Origin: an uncultured Candidatus Altimarinota bacterium
GTDB lineage: Bacteria > Patescibacteriota > Gracilibacteria > BD1-5 > UBA6164
DNA length: 64,000 bases
Assembly (NCBI GenBank): GCA_938015455.1
Contig: CALLPL010000036.1
Coordinates: 9,916-73,915, forward strand
Reading direction: 5' to 3'
The notes beneath the pieces are model-generated. The model worked only from the letters and a program-made list of their open reading frames with translations, was not told where the DNA came from and made no database searches. Shown here piece by piece: positions 13,504 through 51,478 of the stretch. Made by a program: the position numbers and the translations under genes. Position 1 is the stretch's first letter; every line of letters starts with the position of its first letter.

Positions 13504-14214
13504 TTACCAAGTATTACGGAGTTCTCTGAGTCTAATAAACTCATTTTTATCAGCAGATAGAAATGGATTTACACATTTCTCTTCTCAGAGTGAAGTGAAG
13601 TATACTTCCTCCCCTTTTTTCTTCAATATTTTTTCAAGTTCTGGTTTTTTTTCTGGAAGATATTTTTCTATAAATCGAAAGTTGTTCTCAAGATAATCAT
13701 GCCCAGAGTACAGGATAACATCATCTTCATAGCTCTGGAACTTCTGTATACTTCCGTGTAATACTTCGGTATCCCCTGAATAAGTATTCCCTACTCCTCA
13801 TGAAAACACTGTATCTCCTACAAATATTCCAACGACCTTTTCATTTTCAATAATTTCTAAAGAAATATGTCCTGGGGTATGTCCTGGAGTTTCAATCACT
13901 CTGAGTTCAAGATATTCCTCTAGTATGATACTTTCTCACTCTTGAAGTTCATCTGAAAAACACAGTGGTATTTCTTTACTTGCTTTCTCTCCTGTAAATA
14001 TGTCTTCACAATCTAATCATATTACTCCTGAGTAGTGATCGTCATGTTCATGTGTTACTACTATTTTTTCGAGTGAGAGTTTATTTTTAGTGAGGAAATC
14101 TTTTGTAAGTTCACTATCACATGGATCTATAACACAAGCTTTTTTATCTCCATACTCAATAACATAAAATATATTTTGGAGTTCGTTGTTGGTGATAATT
14201 GAATGGATTTTCAT
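13504..14214 (-). CDS. gloB: Hydroxyacylglutathione hydrolase-like metallo-beta-lactamase (glyoxalase II)
   Basis: VVTHEHDDHYSG (HxHxDH), ETPGHTPGHIS, GDTVFSGGVG, LYSGHDY, NPFL. Start taken as MKIHS at 14214; the listed longer ORF runs through the tRNA. Confidence 0.75.
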
Positions 14215-14229
14215 AAATCTATGATACAA

Positions 14230-14255
14230 AAAACTCTTCCTGAAGAAAGAGTTTT
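14230..14255 (-). terminator. Hairpin between tRNA-Leu and gloB (possible terminator or processing signal)
   Basis: Stem aaaactctt / aagagtttt with an 8-nt loop, followed by a T-rich run on the minus strand. Confidence 0.35.
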
Positions 14256-14267
14256 TAAAAGTTTTTA

Positions 14268-14351
14268 TGGTGCCCAGAGAGGGGATCGAACCCTCACACC
14301 CGAAGATAAGGGATTTTGAATCCCTCGTGTCTACCATTCCACCACCTGGGC
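14268..14351 (-). tRNA. tRNA-Leu (anticodon CAA), type II with long variable arm, CCA encoded
   Basis: GCCCAGG acceptor stem. Anticodon arm AGGGA-UUCAAAA-UCCCU. Variable arm UAUCUUCGGGUGU. T arm GAGGG-UUCGAUC-CCCUC. 3' end ACCA. Confidence 0.92.
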
Positions 14352-14356
14352 AAAAA

Positions 14357-14387
14357 ATGGTGGAGCCGGACGAGCCGGCCCCATAGA
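14357..14387 (-). terminator. Rho-independent terminator (GC hairpin plus U-tract)
   Basis: Minus strand GGGGCCGG-CUCGU-CCGGCUCC followed by ACCAUUUUUU, downstream of CDS 14466..15296. Confidence 0.7.
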
Positions 14388-14465
14388 GCTTATAGAGACT
14401 ATAAGCAAAAGTATTATAGTGAAAAAGTCCTTTTTACAAGATTTATAATCTTTCGATCCAACTAA

Positions 14466-15296
14466 TTAACCTAACTTAGTAAATGCATCCAACAAATCAT
14501 CTAAATTAAACGTTACCTTATATGGTTCAGGTAAAAGAGTATGTACTTCTCATGGTGTCTTTTTTGATTCTTTATATTGAATCTCTTCCTTATTTCTTTT
14601 AGGAATTCTATAAAGAGTAATGAGATCTTCCTCAACACGTACTCTTAATCTACATCTCACTTCTTCACCTTCTTTATGAAATTCTGACTCATTAGACATG
14701 TGAGGTCAACTCATGAACTTTTTTCTAACAACATTATCATATTGTTCTACATTAGGAATTCATGTTATATCGACAGGTGTGATATACTCTAGTTTTTCAT
14801 AAAATCTAGGAGGCAAATTTAATACTTGACCAGAAATATTTTTTGACAGAATTCAAGTAAATAGCTTATTTATCAAAGCACATCTCAATCTATTCTTTAT
14901 GCTCACCTCTCCTATGATAATAATTCAATGTGGATCTACTCTATAATCTTCTAATTTGAAAGCAATTTCTCATTTTTTATTTAACTCAACATAGAAAGTA
15001 TGTCAAAAATACTGAAATTTATATGGATATCTGGAAAAATCTCATAATCTTCCTTCGATACTAGCATATGGTGAATCTGCAATAAATTTTCTTATAGGTA
15101 TTGTTTTTTGATCATAACTTCATAATAACGGGGTTACATATCAAGTAACTCTTTCTTTCTCATCATCAATTTTCTCTTGTTTTTCCTTATTTTTTAGTAA
15201 TCCACAGTCAAATCATATTTCATTTGTTCTATCTTGAATTCATATGCATGATTCAACTGCGCTTAAATAAGATAACACTTCATCCCTATTTGTCAT
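14466..15296 (-). CDS. Hypothetical protein (276 aa)
   Basis: ATG 15296, TAA 14466, about 14 in-frame TGA. No family recognised. Confidence 0.5.
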
Positions 15297-42555: not shown

Positions 42556-43122
42556 ATGTTCACCGGTATCATCGAAAAAAAATCTAAGATTCTCAAGATA
42601 GAGGATTCTCGCTTCACTGTAGAGAATTGTTTTAGAGATGAGTTAAAACTCGGTCAATCAGTTGCGCATGATGGGGCTTGTATGACTTTAGAGAAAATTA
42701 AAGATGGTAGTTATAGTTTTTTTGTGATGGAGGAAAGCTTTAAAAAGCTTAATTTTCACGCGAAACGAGTTTGAGAATATTTCAATACCGAGAGGAGTCT
42801 AAAAGCTGACGATAGAATAGATGGGCACTTTGTGAGTGGACATATCGATACAACTGGAGAAATAATTACTTATGAAAGACTTGATGATAATTCGCTTATT
42901 CTCGGAGTTTCATTTGCAAAGGAACATTCTAAATATACTATAGAAAAATGATCCATAGCTCTCAACTGAGTGAGTCTGACAATAATAGATGTATCATCGT
43001 GATATATTTCTGTATCACTTATCCCTCTCACTCAGGATTGGACAAACCTCTGAGATCTCAAACTCTGAGATCTTATAAATATCGAGTTTGATATGCTAGG
43101 AAAATATATACTAAATAAATAA
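42556..43122 (+). CDS. ribE: Riboflavin synthase alpha chain
   Basis: MFTGIIE, GQSVAHDGACMTL, DGHFVSGHID, KGSIALNGVSLTI, NIEFDMLGKY. 188 aa. Confidence 0.9.
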
Positions 43123-43126
43123 TACT

Positions 43127-43576
43127 ATGGCTGAATATACTCAGGAACTAGGAAATATTTCAAATATACCTAAAAATATTGATGTAGCATTTATTACTGC
43201 TGATTTTAATAATCAATATACTGATAAAATGGAGGAAGTCGCTGAAGAGCTTCTTCATGAAAATCATTTTCGGAATATTAAGAAATTTCGTGTTCCTGGA
43301 GCATTTGAAATTCCTGCTATGATCGAACGTATTATGGAAAAGTGAACCTACGATCTTATATATTGTTTTGGGGTAGTAGTTCGAGGATCAACTACACATT
43401 ATGATTATGTGTGTAATGAAACTGCGAGAGGGATTATGGATGCGAGTCGCAAATACCCTACTCCTATTATCTTTGGACTCTTAACCTGTGAAAACTTCGC
43501 ACAAGTAGAGGAAAGAATTAACTCAAACCTCGCAATCTCTGGTCTCAATCTCCTCTCTACTACTCTTGATATATAA
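43127..43576 (+). CDS. ribH: 6,7-dimethyl-8-ribityllumazine synthase
   Basis: VPGAFEIP, FGVVVRGSTTHYDYVCNE, IIFGLLTCEN. 149 aa. Confidence 0.88.
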
Positions 43577-43579
43577 TTC

Positions 43580-44323
43580 ATGATTCAAAAACTTATAGGT
43601 GAAGTAATACATGGAAATAAACTTGGAAGAACTATAGGGTTCCCAACAGCTAATTTGTCTTATTCAGAGATAGATATTTCTGATAGTGTTTTTATTATCA
43701 ATATTATCATTGACCATAAAATACATCGAGGAATTTGAGCAAATATGGTCAAGAAATGAATTTTTGAGGCTCATATCTTTAATTTTTCTGATGATATTTA
43801 TGGAAAAGAAATAGAAATAATTCTTCTTAAAAAGATTCGAGACAATAAAAATTTCAACTCTCTAGAAGAAATAAAATATCAAATTCAAAAAGATCGGGAC
43901 TTTGCAACAGGCTTAGAACTCAACGTACTTACATTTTGAAGCTTTGATGTTATACATGAATGACATAAGTACTATCTCGCAGAAGCTAAAAAATGTGGGA
44001 CAAATCTAATAACTATAATTGCTACAGATAGCAATATTAAAAAGATTAAATGACATTCCCCTCAAAATTCTCAGATTCAGAGATTCAAAGAAATCTCAGA
44101 ACTCTGAATCTCTGATGAAGTATATATGGGCAGTGAGGATCATCCTATGAGCTGGGTTCATAAATTCGTTCCACATGTTATTTGTCTCTGATATGACCAA
44201 TGGTGAAATTTTGTTGAAGATCTCCCAGAAAAAATTTCAGAACTCTGACTTGAAACTGAAATAAAGAGAATTCCCTCCTTTCATCCAGAAAAATTTAAGA
44301 GTTCTCTCTTAAAACAAAAATAA
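43580..44323 (+). CDS. Bifunctional riboflavin kinase / FMN adenylyltransferase with reversed domain order (RFK N-terminal, cytidylyltransferase-like FMNAT C-terminal)
   Basis: N-terminal GEVIHGNKLGRTIGFPTAN...EAHIFNF..DIYGKEIEI (RFK). C-terminal LTFGSFDVIHEGHKYYLAEAKKCGTNLITIIATD (HxGH nucleotidyltransferase). 247 aa. Confidence 0.7.
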
Positions 44324-44416: not shown

Positions 44417-47400
44417 TTATTTTTTCATTATTTCTTGAGCTATCCTATATTGAAGAAGCTGTAATATTGAAGTAAGCTCTTCATTATCTTGATGCTCTGT
44501 AAGTTTTTCATCAATTCTTGCATAAATTGTATACAGGGAGTCTAATCGCTCAGTATCATCTGGTATAGCACGAAGTTTCGTTATGAAGCTCTGTACCTGA
44601 CGCTTATATTGTGTATCTATATCAAGAATATTTTTCTGATCTGGTTCTACAGGACTTTGTGCGTTTTCTATGTACTTCGCTTTTATGATCCATCGTCCTT
44701 CTACTCATCCAATAGGAGTACAGGTAAAGAGTGTAAGATTCTTCCCTTCTCATGGGGTAAGAACTGATGTATCACTTGCTGGAGTATTGTACGAAGCCTC
44801 TGTTACATACTTGTACTGTGAGTATCATCCTGATGCATTCTTTTCATAGACCCAGACTTCTTCCCCAACATCTAGTTCTATAATCTTTTGGAAGTGTGTC
44901 TTATATCTTCACTCTGAGTCTTTCCAATACGAGCTATGAGCGAAAACTACCTTATTCCCTACTTCACCATATCCTCTCGTACTGGTTCCTGGGTACTCAA
45001 GAGCACCGGTTCTGAGAGCTGGATTAATATTTCCTTCTCGGCCATTAATCATCGTATCAAAATCTTTTGAGTCTGATCCAAATTCATTAATTGGAACCAC
45101 AAGACCATTTGATGGAACTACGATATATTTCTGCGCGTTTCTGTCTTCTTCTACCAGTACTTGTTTCCAATGATTTACATCATTGTTCGTAGATCCTGCA
45201 AGACGGAAAGTATCTGCTGATGGAAGCTCTGTAGCTACTCGTGAGTTTGGCTTCGTTTCTATTCTATCTGAAATTGGAGTCCCGGTTCTTGGAAGTTCTT
45301 TTGGAAGAGCTTTGAGAAGCGATTCTCATTTAATTGTTTCTTCTTGAATTTGTTCCTCAATAAGTGCTTCAAGTATATCTTCATACTCTGCTACTTTCTT
45401 TGTAATCTCAGTATCATATTTTTCTTTGAGTTCTTGAACGTTTACTGAGTTAGTAGAATTTATAGGAGCCGAAGGAGCAGAGTTAAGCAGCGGTGTTGAT
45501 GTTCATAAAGGAGTAATGATCGGAGCAGGAAGAGTTGAAGACTCTAGAGGAGTAATAGTAGGATTACTTCTCGAAGAATGACCTCCTCAACTACCTCAAC
45601 TTGAAGATCATGATATAGTTGGGGCAGCAACATACTCCACTACAGTATAATCATTGCTTGCATCACTATCTGTTGTATTATCTCCATTTGGAGTTTCTAT
45701 TTCTCCCGGGTTAGATATAGGAGAACCTGATCTATCCGTAGCTGTATCTGAAACATCACTTGTAGGTCATGCTACACTTTGAGCGATGACTGTAGCAGTA
45801 TTTTCTACAAATCATGCTATGACATCTGGTTGAAAAAGTGAATAGCTTCCTGTGAAGGTAAGCGTGTCTGTTGCTCCAACTGCAAGCGTTGCAATAGGTC
45901 AACCATTTACTGTTATAAGAGGATCTGTTACTACAATATTTGTAAGATCTATATTTCAAGTATTTACTACCTTAAACGTATAGCTTATTGTTTCTCAAAA
46001 TTCTGCCTTTCAGTCATTATTTTCATCATTAAATACTCAGGATTTATAGAGTTCAATTTGAGGAATCTTTTCTATCAGGTAGCTTGTTGGGTCCTCTGTT
46101 GTATCTCCTGTATTATTTGCATAAACAGCAAGTGGGTTATCAGTTTCTGTAGTATCTGGATTACTCACAGAGCTCGTATCCGGAGCAGTCCCTGTATCTG
46201 AAATATCCTCTACTACTGTTCCATTTGGATCTGTACCACTCACGCTTGCGGTATTTTCTATTCCTCAAAAATTAACATCATCTTGAGTCAATACATATGT
46301 TGCTGAATAGTTTACCGAGTTTGTGTGATCAGGACCTATAACAAGGACTGGAGAACCCACTAATACCATACCTGGAAGTGAAGTATCTGTAAGTGTAACG
46401 TCACTGAGAGTAACATTCCCTGTATTAGTAATCTCGAAATTATAACTTACTGTATCTCCTGCTCAAATGATCCCATCCTCTGTTGTGTCTACTACACTCG
46501 AAATAGATTTGATAAGTCGTATATCTGGATTAGGTGAAATAAGGTAACTTGTCGGATCTTCTGTAGGATCACTTCCATTATTTGGATGTGTATCCAAGGG
46601 ATTGTCTGTCTGAGTTCCATCCGGATTAACTATAGTAGTTCCATCTGGAGTAGTTCCTGTATCTGATGTATCTCCTACTATCATATCATTCGGGTCAGTT
46701 CCTGTCACAATTGCAGTGTTTTCTATTCATCCAGCATCTACATCTGCCTGAGTCAATATATAACTCGCTGTATAATTTGTTGTATTTACGTTATTTGGAG
46801 CCATAGTCGGAACTGGACCACCTACCAGAACAAGTCCTGGGAGTGAAGTATCCATAACCGTAACATCACTGAGTGTAACATTCCCAGTATTTGTAATCTC
46901 AAAATGGTAATTCACTGTATCTCCTACTCAGATAACTCCATCTTCTGTTGTGTCTACTACACTCGAGATAGATTTGATAAGCTCTATATCTGGAATAGGT
47001 CATACAGGTTTTGTAACTTCATCTACTGCATCATCTAATATTCCTCATAATGGTGTCCCAGTTGCTGTAGCAATATTAACAACCTCTCCATCATCTGCTT
47101 CAACTTGAGTTACGGGGATACTTGTACAGCTATATTCCCACTGTTCCAAAGGAGAAAGAATATTATCTGAATTAGCATCCGTGTTTGTATCAAGCGTAGG
47201 TCATGAGGTACATTTTTCATCACTCAAGTTAACGAAAGATATAGGCAGATCTCCTGTATTCGTAAGAATAAAAGTATAATCTAGAGTATCCCCTGCCTTC
47301 ATTGGTGTTGATGTTGTTGCCTTTTCAAGAGTCCAACTGGGTACTCATGTAAAGTATCAGAAGTCTTGATCATTATTATCTACTAAGTCTATAACTACAC

Positions 47401-50400
47401 CATCATCATTTTCTATTTCTATAAGGGTATGGGTTGATGTATGTGGTGTTCCAAGTCCATCTGCATCATAGCTTTGAAATGTGTCTACTGGAAGAGTGCT
47501 AGGATCAACTTGTACTTGATATAATCCTACGGGGAGATTATCAAAGAGATATTCTCCATTTGCATCAGTTTGAACCGTATATGGAACTGCCCCTGTGTCA
47601 GACGCAGAAACTACCATCCCCGTAAGAGGATCCACATATATCGGATCACCTGCTCCATCAAGAAGATTTAATGTCACTCATGAAAATGCTCACTCAGAGC
47701 TATCTTGTATTCAATCAGCATTTTCGTCATTCCATATATAGTTTCCTATACTCCCTAGTGGAGTGTAATTATATCAAAAATCTTGATCTTCATCGTCCTC
47801 TACTCAGATGATATTTCAAACAGCATCTGCTTCAAGATCTAAAGTTGTATCAGAAATATTAGAACTTCCAAGACCATCTGAATCATGGGTCTGTTCAGCT
47901 CATGCAGGAAGAGTACTTGGATCAATAGATATTTGATAGTCTCACTGTGGGAGATTTTCAAAGCTATACTCTCCATTTACATCAGTTGTAGCTGTGTATG
48001 GAACAGCTCCTGGAAAACTCGAGTCCACTATTGCTCCTGTGACAGGATCTACATATATTGGATTACCTGATCCATCCAGAAGATTTACTACTACTCATTC
48101 AATACCTGGTTCTCCTGAATCTTCGATTCCATCTCCATTGAGATCATACCAAATAGTATCTCCAATACTCCCACTTACAACCGTAACACTCACATCATTA
48201 GAAATAACATTTAGAGAAATCTCTTTAATCCTTCCTCAAAATGTATTGGTATATACATCTCATGTTGAAAGGTCTGTAACTTTTCCTTCTGAGTCTATAT
48301 CAGGTGTTCCACCTATATTTCCAAAGGGAGTAAGTTCGAGAGAGACTATCTGTCATCCAGCGTTCGCCGCAATATTTCCTGTGACAAATTTAACAGCTGT
48401 TATATCTTCTGGAACTATAGTTCAACATGTTACGGGAGTCGTAAGACTTGAACATGTTTGCCAGTTAGTTGTTCCCGTTCACTGCGTTCATCCACCTGGA
48501 AGTGTACCTCCATTATCCATATATACCTGGTAACATAAATCTCATGAAGCCGGAGTATATCCATTTGGGAGATTATCAGCACTACAGGGATCTTGAGAGA
48601 TACTTGTAGGATTAACATCTGTTGCATAAAATATCTCTCCATTAGAAGAACTTATATTTGTAAGAGTAAGAGATCCATTAAAAGTAGTTGAAGGATCTCT
48701 CGTAGAGTTTAAACCTGAAGTAATTCCTCCATTACCATCGTCGTGGTATGGGAGAATATCAATAAATTCTCCTTCGCTATAATCCTCTCATCATAAGTTT
48801 TTGTAAACAAGGTCATAAGTAAATGGAGTATTTGTACTCTGAACATTATTAGAAACGGTCTTAAATACATCAAAACCATATTCAGGAAGTATTGTGAGCT
48901 GATATGTCGCACTGGCTGAGTCTGAAAAACCATCTCCATCTTGATCTGCTCAAATATCACCAGTAATCACAGCTGTATTAGTAAAAGACCCGGAAGTACG
49001 AGATGGATCTGCTTGTACACTATATTTTATAAGTGGGAGCTGTTCCCCTGCATCAACACTTCAAAAGTTCCAAATCAAAGGATCATCAAATCATTGATGT
49101 TGAGAACTCGTAATGGTTATATCTGGGCTACTTGCATCATAGTCTGTTCTGTTGAGCCAAGTACTTCCTCCATCTATACTAAACTCTTCACTTCCAGCTA
49201 CATAGTCTGTTCCATTTGGGAGATTATCATTTACAGTTGCTGTATTAATAGTGTTATTCCATAGTCATAAAACTTGAGGAGTGATAATAAAATCTATGAT
49301 ATCCCCTCACCTAATAACCTTTATTCCCTTAGGGGATGTTTCTTTTGCTACTGAGTGATTTGAAGGAACGAGAATATTACGATCTGCAAATGAAGAAGAA
49401 AGACTAAAGTTTACGGCCTCAGGATCATCTACAACAGAAGTATCTAAAGTATTTCTCCAAGTACTAAACTCTGATCCTGGTCCAGTATCAAACCTGTAGG
49501 TCATGTATGACGCAAGGTAGTTATTAGAACCGTATCAGCTTGTTAAACCATCTTGAACCTTAACATTATAGTTTGTGGTGATTCCATAGTGAGTATGTGC
49601 CGGACTTGCAGCTAATGCAGCAGGCTTGTCATAATATGATTCCCATCGAACTTTCGAGATCGCTGATCTAGATCAAGTAACCATATCAGGGTCTTCCCAC
49701 CAATCGACTGTTCCTGTAGTTGGATTTCAATTTTCGTCAACTAGACTTCATGACATATTCATTATTACAACAGAACTATCACCATTAACATCATCATCAC
49801 AAAAGTCTTCTTTGAGTTCAGTGAGGGTCGCATGAGAATCGTTTGAGTATAAATATTTACTAAATGGTGAGGTATCAAAAAATGCCGTAGAAACACCAGG
49901 AAAATAGGCAACTCCATTCGGGTTTGTTGGACCATGATTCCATCAGTATCATAAATCTGCTCGAGGTGCAGGAGATAATCCTATATATTCATATTTCGTT
50001 AGATCAAGTTTTGTACATGTTTGAGATCTAGCACCATCAATGGTTCTGTAATCAAAAACATTATTCATAATGGCTACTGTCTCTCCTGCAGATACATATT
50101 GTTCCTGCTGTAGCTTATGGCTAGTCCCCCAAGGCATTTTAAAGTGACTCATATAAGCAGAATAAGTTCCTGGAGATGAGTAGGTCATTACAAAACTACG
50201 AGTCTGATCCGTAAATGATGGCTCTCAAGATCCGTTATAATTGAGAAGATTATTTTCTCCTACATCTTCTGTTGAAATAGGGTTAAATCATAATATTGAT
50301 CATGAACTATAGGTTCATACTGAGTTTATAACATAGTTCTCACAGCTTGGACAACTTTGATGCCCATCAATATCAGGAGTTCGAGGAAACCATAAATTTA

Positions 50401-51478
50401 TTGCTACTTCTATAAGATTACTATCATTATCAGGATCTCTTACATCAATATTATCTAGATCTATAGTAATATTTGGATCATTTACTCCATCAGGAACAAA
50501 CGAGGGTCCTGTAAAATCCCCTGAAACACTGTCTTGGGTACATGAAACAGTTGCGTTTGCTCCATGATCCCCTATAAGAGAACATCCAGGATCTAGTCCC
50601 CAAGTATATAAGATACCTCCAGTAGAGAGATCTCCTCCACTTCCAGAAGTATTGTTGTTATCATTGTTATCTGTATAGAAGTCCAATAAGTCATAATCAA
50701 CTTCAAAGGTTATTTCATCAGAATCAGCAACCATAGATCCTTTTTCATATGTTGCTTTTATTACATACTCCATAAGTACTCACTGTTCCCCACTTGGTCA
50801 ATCTTTCAAAGGAGGATCATAAACAACATCCACATTTCCATCTCCATCTGTGTCTACATCAGGTACTTTAAGATCTTTTGTAGTATTTACACGAAAATTT
50901 GCTGTTACTATAGTATCTTCACTTGTATCGCTTGCAGCAATCGATCCATCTCACTGAGATGAAACACTCGCGCTCACCCTATCGTCGTTGAGAGTTATCT
51001 CGCTTCCGTCAGCTGATGCTCCAATCGCTCTTGCAGCTGGAAAAAATATCCTATTTGTTCCTTCGATTGCAGGTCATAGATTACAAAAGAGTGTTGTCTT
51101 ATCTATTGAAATAGTTGATATATTCGCAACAATCGCTGGATCTGTCTGACATCATGATGGAATCTCTATCCATGCCTGTTTACTATCAAGCTGAACGGTT
51201 GAAGTCAATTCATTCACATCATTGTCATTTATAGAAACCTCAACCTTATACGTAATAGAATCTTGAAGTCTCGTAACATTATTTTCTTCATCTTCATCAA
51301 ATCCAGCTGTTGCTAGGTCATTTCCATCCCAAGTAACACCAAGGTCAAAAGGTTCTGATCAAGTTTTAAAAACAGAAATCGTAGTATTTACCACAGGAGT
51401 TGCAGCATATATGGCAGAAATAGGAAGAATCCCCCACACAAGAGTTATTAGTAATGTAGAAGATGTTAAACGTTTCAT
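44417..51478 (-). CDS. Giant secreted repeat adhesin (2353 aa) with a C-terminal sortase domain
   Basis: ATG 51478 to TAA 44417, with no TAA/TAG in frame (checked triplet by triplet) and dozens of TGA. Signal peptide [25 protein letters not shown]. SdrD/Cna-B-like units ([22 protein letters not shown]). DUF11-like units ([20 protein letters not shown]). S/G/P linker. Sortase motifs [21 protein letters not shown]. Confidence 0.75.
45990..47010 (-). repeat. Tandem 465-nt (155-aa) coding repeats inside the giant gene
   Basis: tgttgtgtctactacactcga at 46481 recurs at 46946 (offset 465). Protein units ...[21 protein letters not shown]...TGTDPN...EDPTSYLI. Confidence 0.8.

Follow-up and report, generated by a model that had tools for sequence, protein, structure and literature searches.

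A giant adhesin of an uncultured Gracilibacteria bacterium with an LPRTG motif ahead of its own sortase domain, a candidate self-processing junction

The sorting of surface proteins by sortases is taught as a two-component, membrane-bound process, in which a membrane enzyme acts on a substrate held by its hydrophobic tail. Here we describe a gene for a giant adhesin that encodes both an LPRTG motif and, further along the same chain, a sortase domain. It lies in a stretch of 64,000 nucleotides (nt) from an uncultured Candidatus Altimarinota bacterium of the Gracilibacteria lineage (GenBank assembly GCA_938015455.1, contig CALLPL010000036.1, positions 9,916 to 73,915). This whole stretch is called the window below, and coordinates follow its own numbering unless another contig is named. 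With classical LPXTG sorting (family C60; Staphylococcus aureus SrtA) the locus shares an LPxTG motif placed after a Ser/Gly/Pro/Thr-rich spacer on a secreted repeat adhesin, along with the sortase fold, the His/Cys/Arg triad, and the TLxTC signature of the enzymes. Unlike the classical arrangement, substrate and enzyme are a single polypeptide here and the enzyme has no membrane anchor, while the motif is followed by neither a hydrophobic helix nor a basic tail but by 287 residues, where about 30-40 are usual. On comparative grounds we take the LPRTG to be probably, if by no means certainly, a genuine selected processing site that is cut in cis or in trans by the fused sortase, with the adhesin being passed to an amine of the envelope.

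Part of this logic recalls the Hedgehog- and intein-type C-terminal domains, which turn the preceding peptide bond into a (thio)ester and hand the N-terminal part to a nucleophile in a single turnover. This is an analogy only, as the fold and the chemistry are unrelated and the nucleophile would be a Cys 187 residues downstream instead of the junction residue. Closer in the order of its parts is STEPL, reportedly described by Warden-Rothman et al. (Anal Chem 2013), in which a target, an LPXTG motif, a flexible linker, and a sortase are said to be joined such that the sortase cleaves the motif ahead of it on its own chain and couples the target to an amine nucleophile that is added. That construct is reportedly engineered from S. 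aureus SrtA with a synthetic linker and triggered by Ca2+ and peptide. The present protein has the same succession of passenger, LPRTG, about 18 residues with a low predicted local distance difference test (pLDDT) score, and sortase domain. It is distinguished from STEPL in being a natural module whose sortase, of a divergent subfamily, is preceded by a conserved lead-in and followed by a C-terminal tail of helices, and in that self-cleavage is putative here. STEPL is cited in a passage of PMC9075798, and there are other engineered self-cleaving sortase fusions, such as BISOP (PMC2901362). The searchable literature yielded engineered fusions only and no description of a natural substrate-sortase fusion; a Gracilibacteria genome paper that mentions a sortase merely records the presence of one (PMC6851277).

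The third point of comparison is with the class C sortases, which possess an N-terminal extension of one or two helices and a DP[FWY] lid that serves as a pseudo-substrate (PMC3493515). Like Actinomyces oris SrtC-1 (2xwg) and group B Streptococcus SrtC1 (3tbe/4g1j), the fused enzyme is extended on the N-terminal side of its barrel, where a segment is predicted to lie packed against the domain, and its solo relatives keep a presumably uncleavable look-alike, IPQTRA, where the class C sortases have their lid. It differs from them in the absence of a DP[FWY] lid and of a C-terminal transmembrane (TM) helix, in a passenger that contains neither the YPKN pilin motif nor an E-box, and in having a true LPxTG instead of a mimic.

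Anatomy of the fusion and its sortase domain

The gene occupies 44417..51478 on the minus strand, as do all of its features given below, and specifies 2,353 amino acids (aa) under genetic code 25, in which TGA stands for glycine. Its open reading frame (ORF) contains 64 in-frame TGA codons and is open only with TGA read as a residue. With table 11 the whole window has just 4 ORFs of at least 150 aa, and with TGA as a residue it becomes densely coding; the table 11 reading, which leaves no long ORF in this region, was dropped. The assignment of glycine is favored by the codon usage of the adhesin gene (64 TGA versus 23 TGG), by the presence in the genome of a tRNA with the anticodon UCA, and by the homologs, whose TGA codons map onto invariant Gly columns, that of the motif among them. 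Related contigs are labeled as Candidatus Gracilibacteria, Absconditabacterales, or Peribacteria metagenome-assembled genomes (MAGs). The Gly codon of the motif is GGG in this gene, and hence the LPRTG reading is independent of the TGA recoding.

The precursor starts with a signal peptide (aa 1-25; 51404..51478), which is the sole strongly hydrophobic segment of the protein (maximum 19-residue Kyte-Doolittle mean 1.92). Then come about 1,900 aa of adhesin-type modules, namely SdrD_B/Cna-B-like and SpaA-like domains, four DUF7507 stretches, and one DUF11 match. These lead into the Ser/Gly/Pro/Thr-rich spacer (aa 1951-2011; 45446..45628), which resembles the wall-spanning segment ahead of the LPXTG in classical surface proteins; a like spacer also occurs in a second fusion of the same genome and in the passenger of a split locus, both considered below. 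An acidic helical segment with a conserved lead-in (aa 2012-2061; 45296..45445), whose Pro2059 is about 91% conserved, brings the chain to the LPRTG (aa 2062-2066). The motif is specified by CTT CCA AGA ACC GGG, read from 45295 to 45281, and its predicted scissile bond lies between T2065 (codon 45284-45286) and G2066 (codon 45281-45283). The roughly 18 residues after it are polar and, in place of the hydrophobic helix of a sorting signal, form a low-confidence flexible linker (aa 2067-2084; 45227..45280) with a pLDDT of about 54 that drops below 50 at model residues 32-34.

The original prediction, made from the letters of the window and its translated ORFs, had placed an LPRTG in a quoted peptide context at 45281-45295, about 55 residues upstream of the fused sortase domain and with no TM anchor or charged tail. 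The translation reproduces the motif and its context exactly. No hydrophobic segment that could anchor either the substrate or the enzyme is present in residues 2040-2353, where the maximum 19-residue Kyte-Doolittle mean is 0.70, and the end of the chain (...EIMKK), coming 287 residues past the motif, is no charged sorting tail, its terminal MKK belonging to a helical bundle. The distance was fairly judged as well: from G2066 there are about 51 residues to the first strand of the barrel (YIVVP, 2118, in an AlphaFold2 (AF2) model), 87 to the start of the Pfam match, and 187 to the catalytic Cys.

A complete sortase enzyme sits behind the motif on the same chain. The domain, along with a short N-terminal helical extension, spans aa 2085-2272 (44663..45226), and residues 2153-2268 match Pfam PF04203 (peptidase C60) with 43.6 bits against a cut-off of 26.6; a six-frame search of the genome gives the domain 49 bits. 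The catalytic triad comprises His2181 in VVFAHSS (44936..44938), Cys2253 in TLFTC (44720..44722), and Arg2262 in EGRWIIKAK (44693..44695), and the corresponding columns are 96-100% conserved across 78 homologs. A profile of the C-terminal region aligns the Cys and the Arg with those of Clostridium perfringens SrtD (4d70) and Bacillus anthracis SrtA (2kw8). The AF2 model (mean pLDDT 84.8, predicted template-modeling score 0.70), along with a Foldseek search with it, supports the eight-stranded β-barrel of the sortase fold: all 50 listed matches are sortases, the best having an E-value of 5.5e-10 and a probability of 1.0, with target-normalized template-modeling scores of 0.5-0.77. A curated class could not be assigned, as the NCBIfam models for classes C, D, and E, with cut-offs of 140-165 bits, reach 19-22 bits and TIGR01076, the general sortase model, reaches 18.3 bits where 39.35 are required, and no further sortase class model matched at E ≤ 0.01.

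The same model brings in one of the competing explanations, namely that the LPxTG segment stays uncleaved and, as a pseudo-substrate or lid, occupies and regulates the active site of the fused sortase, whose targets would be other proteins. The top Foldseek matches are lid-bearing class C sortases and Corynebacterium diphtheriae SrtA. The lead-in to the LPRTG (model residues 11-20) is predicted to pack on the sortase domain with a pLDDT of 91, the block holding the motif having 73 and the following linker falling to the low value given above, and in class C the extension and lid likewise mimic an LPXTG (PMC3493515). Set against this, known lids are not LPxTG, and a true LPxTG with an invariant T-G in the groove of a transpeptidase should be cut. 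There is also no DP[FWY] between G2066 and the first strand: the nearest approach in the segment 2066-2117 is D-T-F-RLAG, of which only F-R-L-A-G is conserved. Weighed with the split loci and solo enzymes described below, this explanation strikes us as rather unlikely.

The motif across homologs and its association with a passenger

In a single protein of this length a match to LPxTG means little. The original prediction had itself conceded that a chance occurrence was not negligible, and the composition indeed predicts 0.087 LPxTG per protein (0.004 per 100 residues), such that the LPRTG of this one sequence is only weakly significant against chance. It is the conservation of the motif in homologs, and not the single sequence, that sets it above chance. 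A word-indexed search limited to proteins of similar length returned 37 fusions with 35-62% identity across the query. With the last 314 aa as its query, an exhaustive HMMER search found 1,122 matches, 75 of them at E ≤ 1e-30. A single profile served to align 186 sequences, which we grouped according to what precedes the motif column, counting as passenger-bearing those with at least 150 aa ahead of it. By this definition 78 homologs bear a passenger; an exact LPxT[G/W] stands in the same alignment column in 61 of these, W being TGA read as Trp, and near variants such as LLKTG and MPRTG in a further 8. The Gly is present in 78/78, the Leu in 96%, and the Thr in 92%, a conservation on the level of the columns of the catalytic triad. 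In most homologs 181-196 aa separate the motif from the catalytic Cys, with the exact motifs lying about 185-190 aa ahead of it. Thus, both the pentapeptide and its spacing, which the original prediction had proposed to check in orthologous fusions, turn out to be conserved.

The residue at position x is mostly K, R, or Q in the listed fusions, as opposed to the E in the one classical substrate of the genome (LPETG). More fused examples translated with code 25, drawn from MAG contigs and from another family of the class, follow suit: L005-L010 read LPRTG, LPKTG, LPRTG, LPQTG, LPKTG, and LLQTG, the genome G122 has LPQTG, and L013 has LLDTG. A first impression from a regular-expression scan, that the motif is absent in half of the homologs, was discarded when the alignment revealed LPKTW, LPRTW, and LPQTW at the expected place. 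These LPxTW forms of the database entries arise from gene callers having translated TGA as Trp. Entries with such a W for Gly include P0004, P0005, P0015-P0021, P0027, P0030, P0033, and P0035, among others, and PSNG is likewise displayed as PSNW. Calling TGA as Trp hence hides LPxTG as LPxTW, and motif-based searches for sortase substrates would miss such proteins.

A pentapeptide with no sortase-related function, whether it arose by chance or is a structural element of a conserved linker, is very improbable. The compositional expectation is not zero, and the flanks (LLKxLP... and PISxR) are conserved too; such a reading would leave unexplained why the Gly is invariant and the Leu and Thr, both above 90%, match the catalytic residues in conservation, why this conservation depends on the presence of a passenger, and why the motif is kept at the C-terminus of the passenger after gene fission, with synonymous changes in its codons.

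The dependence on the passenger is most evident when the fused forms are set against the solo ones. Exact and near motifs together occur in 69/78 fused forms versus 1/44 TM-anchored solo relatives (Fisher p ~8e-23, a value overstated by the phylogenetic non-independence of the sequences), and most of the other TM-anchored solo sequences have no segment that could be aligned with it at all. A maximum-likelihood tree of 141 sortase-core sequences has one large clade composed chiefly of fused forms, within which TM-anchored stand-alone enzymes emerge several times. Across this alignment, then, the motif goes with the presence of a passenger, a distribution that tells against a lid too, which would be equally useful in the solo relatives, nearly all of which have lost or lack it.

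A split locus and the fate of the motif after fission

The genome (G000) has four sortase domains: the present fusion, a second fusion on contig C30, an ordinary enzyme on contig C19, and a solo paralog on contig C8, the last two having N-terminal TM helices. The C8 locus is the most informative of these. It codes for a passenger (14593..15282, minus strand; 229 aa) in which a signal peptide leads into a long Ser/Gly-rich body, and for a TM-anchored sortase of the same subfamily (13721..14566, minus strand; 281 aa), whose gene begins 26 nt 3' of the passenger stop codon. The passenger ends in ...LLNSIPTKIPTTGVSISR directly before its stop, that is, with IPTTG plus 5 aa (IPTTGVSISR), and this tail (...SSTSLLNSIPTKIPTTGVSISR) is homologous to the fusion junction. 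On the enzyme side, the segment homologous to the motif region is LPAKIPQTRASIGDR, with IPQTRA as its copy of the motif, and it appears as LKKLPAKIPQTRASIGDR in the genome survey. The same pair recurs on an independent ENA metagenome contig, L041, with the passenger at 3-374 and the sortase at 437-1270. There the passenger ends in ...LLKNLPTKIPQTGVSMSK (IPQTGVSMSK before the stop; terminal stretch ...STSLLKNLPTKIPQTGVSMSK), and the sortase, 76% identical to its C8 counterpart, has the segment ...LPAKIPQTRASISDR, its motif region reading ...LLKELPAKIPQTRASISDR. In both passengers the tail after the motif is just 5 residues long, closes with R or K, and lacks a TM helix.

The C8/L041 solo pair adjoins P0001 deep in the fused clade of the tree, and this nested position makes it a product of secondary fission. 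After the fission, an intact (I/L)PxTG stands at the end of the passenger, and the enzyme's own copy has undergone a change of Gly to Arg. The last 29 codons of the passenger differ between C8 and L041 by 8 synonymous and 13 non-synonymous changes, and several of the synonymous ones affect codons of residues conserved in ...PTKIP.TGVS.S., a sign of purifying selection on this tail. The enzyme-side copy, for its part, has a new TM anchor on one side and the catalytic domain on the other. Provided that this domain can cleave the intact motif, a cleavable copy at this place would cut the enzyme off its anchor, and the loss of the Gly is what one would expect. We see in this locus the strongest, if indirect, evidence that the sortase subfamily uses the motif as a substrate and that the intact motif there would be within the reach of the domain.

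For the lid explanation these loci are double-edged. The solo enzymes keep a conserved IPQTRA in the same place as the motif of the fusions, as would be expected of a regulatory segment, whereas the split loci put the intact motif at the C-terminus of the passenger. As a general rule, a passenger ending in LPxTG next to solo sortases of the subfamily was rejected, being found only in the C8/P0042 clade: the neighboring genes of the solo sortases P0062, P0061, and P0080 are unrelated and include no LPxTG passenger. The split arrangement is thus specific to the C8/P0042 clade.

The second fusion of the genome, on contig C30 (5068..11496, minus strand; 2,142 aa), combines a junction and sortase domain nearly identical to those of the present protein with another N-terminal passenger, which suggests that adhesin genes share or exchange the C-terminal cassette.

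Proposed mechanism, other sortases, and genomic context

The processing that we favor, by the fused sortase and onto an envelope amine, could proceed as follows, with the steps after export drawn from general sortase chemistry and the comparative pattern. The Sec system would export the 2,353-aa precursor by means of the N-terminal signal peptide, itself a feature of the sequence. The sortase domain would then fold and bind the LPxxLP[KRQ]TG junction of its own chain, across the linker of about 20 residues, or that of a neighboring copy. Cys2253 would attack the T2065-G2066 bond, leaving the adhesin of about 2,040 aa as a thioester on a C-terminal fragment of 288 aa. The thioester would be resolved by an amine, for which a peptidoglycan precursor or a stem peptide of the cell's own wall is the likeliest candidate. 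This would attach the adhesin through its C-terminal Thr and set the sortase fragment free. A pilus-type polymerization was ruled out, as the 2,353 aa contain neither a YPK nor an ET.AP pattern, which would mark the YPKN pilin motif and the E-box.

A variant of this scheme is that the fused sortase cuts its own motif with water as the acceptor, such that the domain is a self-removing pro-domain and the adhesin is shed or matured instead of being anchored. Sortases slowly hydrolyze their acyl-enzyme when a nucleophile is absent; here, moreover, the enzyme has no membrane anchor to keep it close to lipid II, and neither a pilin motif nor an E-box points to polymerization. We nonetheless regard hydrolysis as a quite unlikely outcome: the Ser/Gly/Pro/Thr-rich spacer upstream is typical of wall-anchored proteins, an adhesin left unanchored would fail to tether the cell, shedding would require no more than a simple protease, and the enzyme of the split system is membrane-anchored in the manner of ordinary anchoring sortases.

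A further variant makes the thioester acyl-enzyme the working state instead of a transient intermediate. Here the adhesin would remain loaded on its soluble sortase after self-cleavage, as a reactive warhead, and its C-terminal Thr would be ligated to amines outside the producer, for instance the peptidoglycan stem peptides or surface proteins of a host or prey cell. An enzyme used only once and needing no membrane would in this way tether one cell covalently to another. An episymbiotic or predatory way of life is presumed for these bacteria. The missing membrane anchor and the patchy, accessory distribution of the fusion, with three genomes of the same genus in which it was not found, are compatible with such a role, to which we would give only a slim chance.

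The other sortases of these genomes have to be considered next. The fusion adds to a classical sortase pathway and does not replace it, since the genome also codes for the ordinary TM-anchored sortase on contig C19 (42218..43219, minus strand; 333 aa) and for a classical substrate on contig C6 (68267..69064, minus strand; 265 aa) with an LPETG, a hydrophobic helix (PEHIFLALAALLLGFGFFYL), and a terminal RKKA. Among the 151 genomes of the class, 132 match the C-terminal profile at E ≤ 1e-15; most of these matches cover the sortase core alone, and we read them as ordinary sortases. The full C-terminal module including the motif region is found in few of the 151. In three genomes of the same genus (G035, G047, and G125) an ordinary sortase was found and the full module was not, though giant repeat genes are easily lost from draft assemblies. 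Hence, the module may either behave as an accessory, variable surface gene or have been lost from these assemblies. We also sought a carrier genome with no other sortase, but G122, the candidate, has a second one.

This setting raises the possibility that the LPRTG is a real sorting signal cut by an ordinary membrane-anchored sortase of the C19 type, with the fused domain being otherwise employed or a by-product. The genome has both the enzyme and an exemplary LPETG substrate for such a pathway, and ordinary sortases are widespread in the class. Yet a discarded domain would not be expected to keep its full catalytic triad, nor would this explanation account for the loss of the enzyme-side Gly and for the split passenger lying beside a sortase of the same subfamily. 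The fused motifs, being mostly K, R, or Q at position x, also depart from the E of the classical substrate, and a substrate devoid of a TM helix would not be kept at the membrane for a membrane enzyme to act on. We therefore rank cleavage by an ordinary sortase as unlikely, while according it more weight than any other alternative.

Several observations weigh against processing by the fused sortase, and they bear on it from different sides. The C19 sortase could cut the motif in its stead, and all four carrier genomes checked (G122, G114, G130, and G109) hold further sortases. A soluble sortase with no anchor has no obvious way of staying near lipid II, and its best structural matches are the lid-bearing class C enzymes. 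The enzyme-side IPQTRA is itself conserved between both split loci, from which it follows that the segment also has a structural or regulatory role, as befits a lid. Among the fusions, 9/78 hold other variants of the motif, including LPQMG, LPKMG, LPQSG, LAQTG, and IPSAG. Finally, P0060 (362 aa), a TM-anchored short homolog, keeps LPKT[TGA] about 70 aa into its chain and is the only short homolog with both an N-terminal hydrophobic segment and an intact motif; it is a fusion whose passenger is very short, or else an exception to the loss of the motif in TM-anchored forms.

If the favored processing holds, giant adhesins with their own anchor-less sortase would constitute a second way of using sortase chemistry and a natural counterpart to STEPL, which engineers built independently. 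The module would be a compact, self-contained ligation unit, and its LPxxLP[KRQ]TG context potentially of practical use. It would also bear on how the Gracilibacteria, which are ultra-small and depend on hosts, build the large surface proteins that presumably mediate their attachment.

Behind the sortase domain, the protein ends in a helical bundle (aa 2279-2353; 44420..44644; pLDDT about 87-94), which has no family match and no clear link to anchoring in our searches. The bundle occurs in one fusion subclade and in some solo enzymes and is missing in others. The notion that a helical tail substitutes for the TM anchor in fused forms fails as a rule, because many fused forms stop about 23 aa past the Cys and several TM-anchored solo forms have a tail of about 90 aa. 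The neighbors of the adhesin gene in the window, which include riboflavin genes, a PilB/GspE-like ATPase, and small membrane proteins, are uninformative as to its function. Directly downstream of it, on the opposite strand, lie three ORFs (42556..44323, plus strand) whose translations look like a riboflavin synthase, a lumazine synthase, and a RibF-like kinase/adenylyltransferase.

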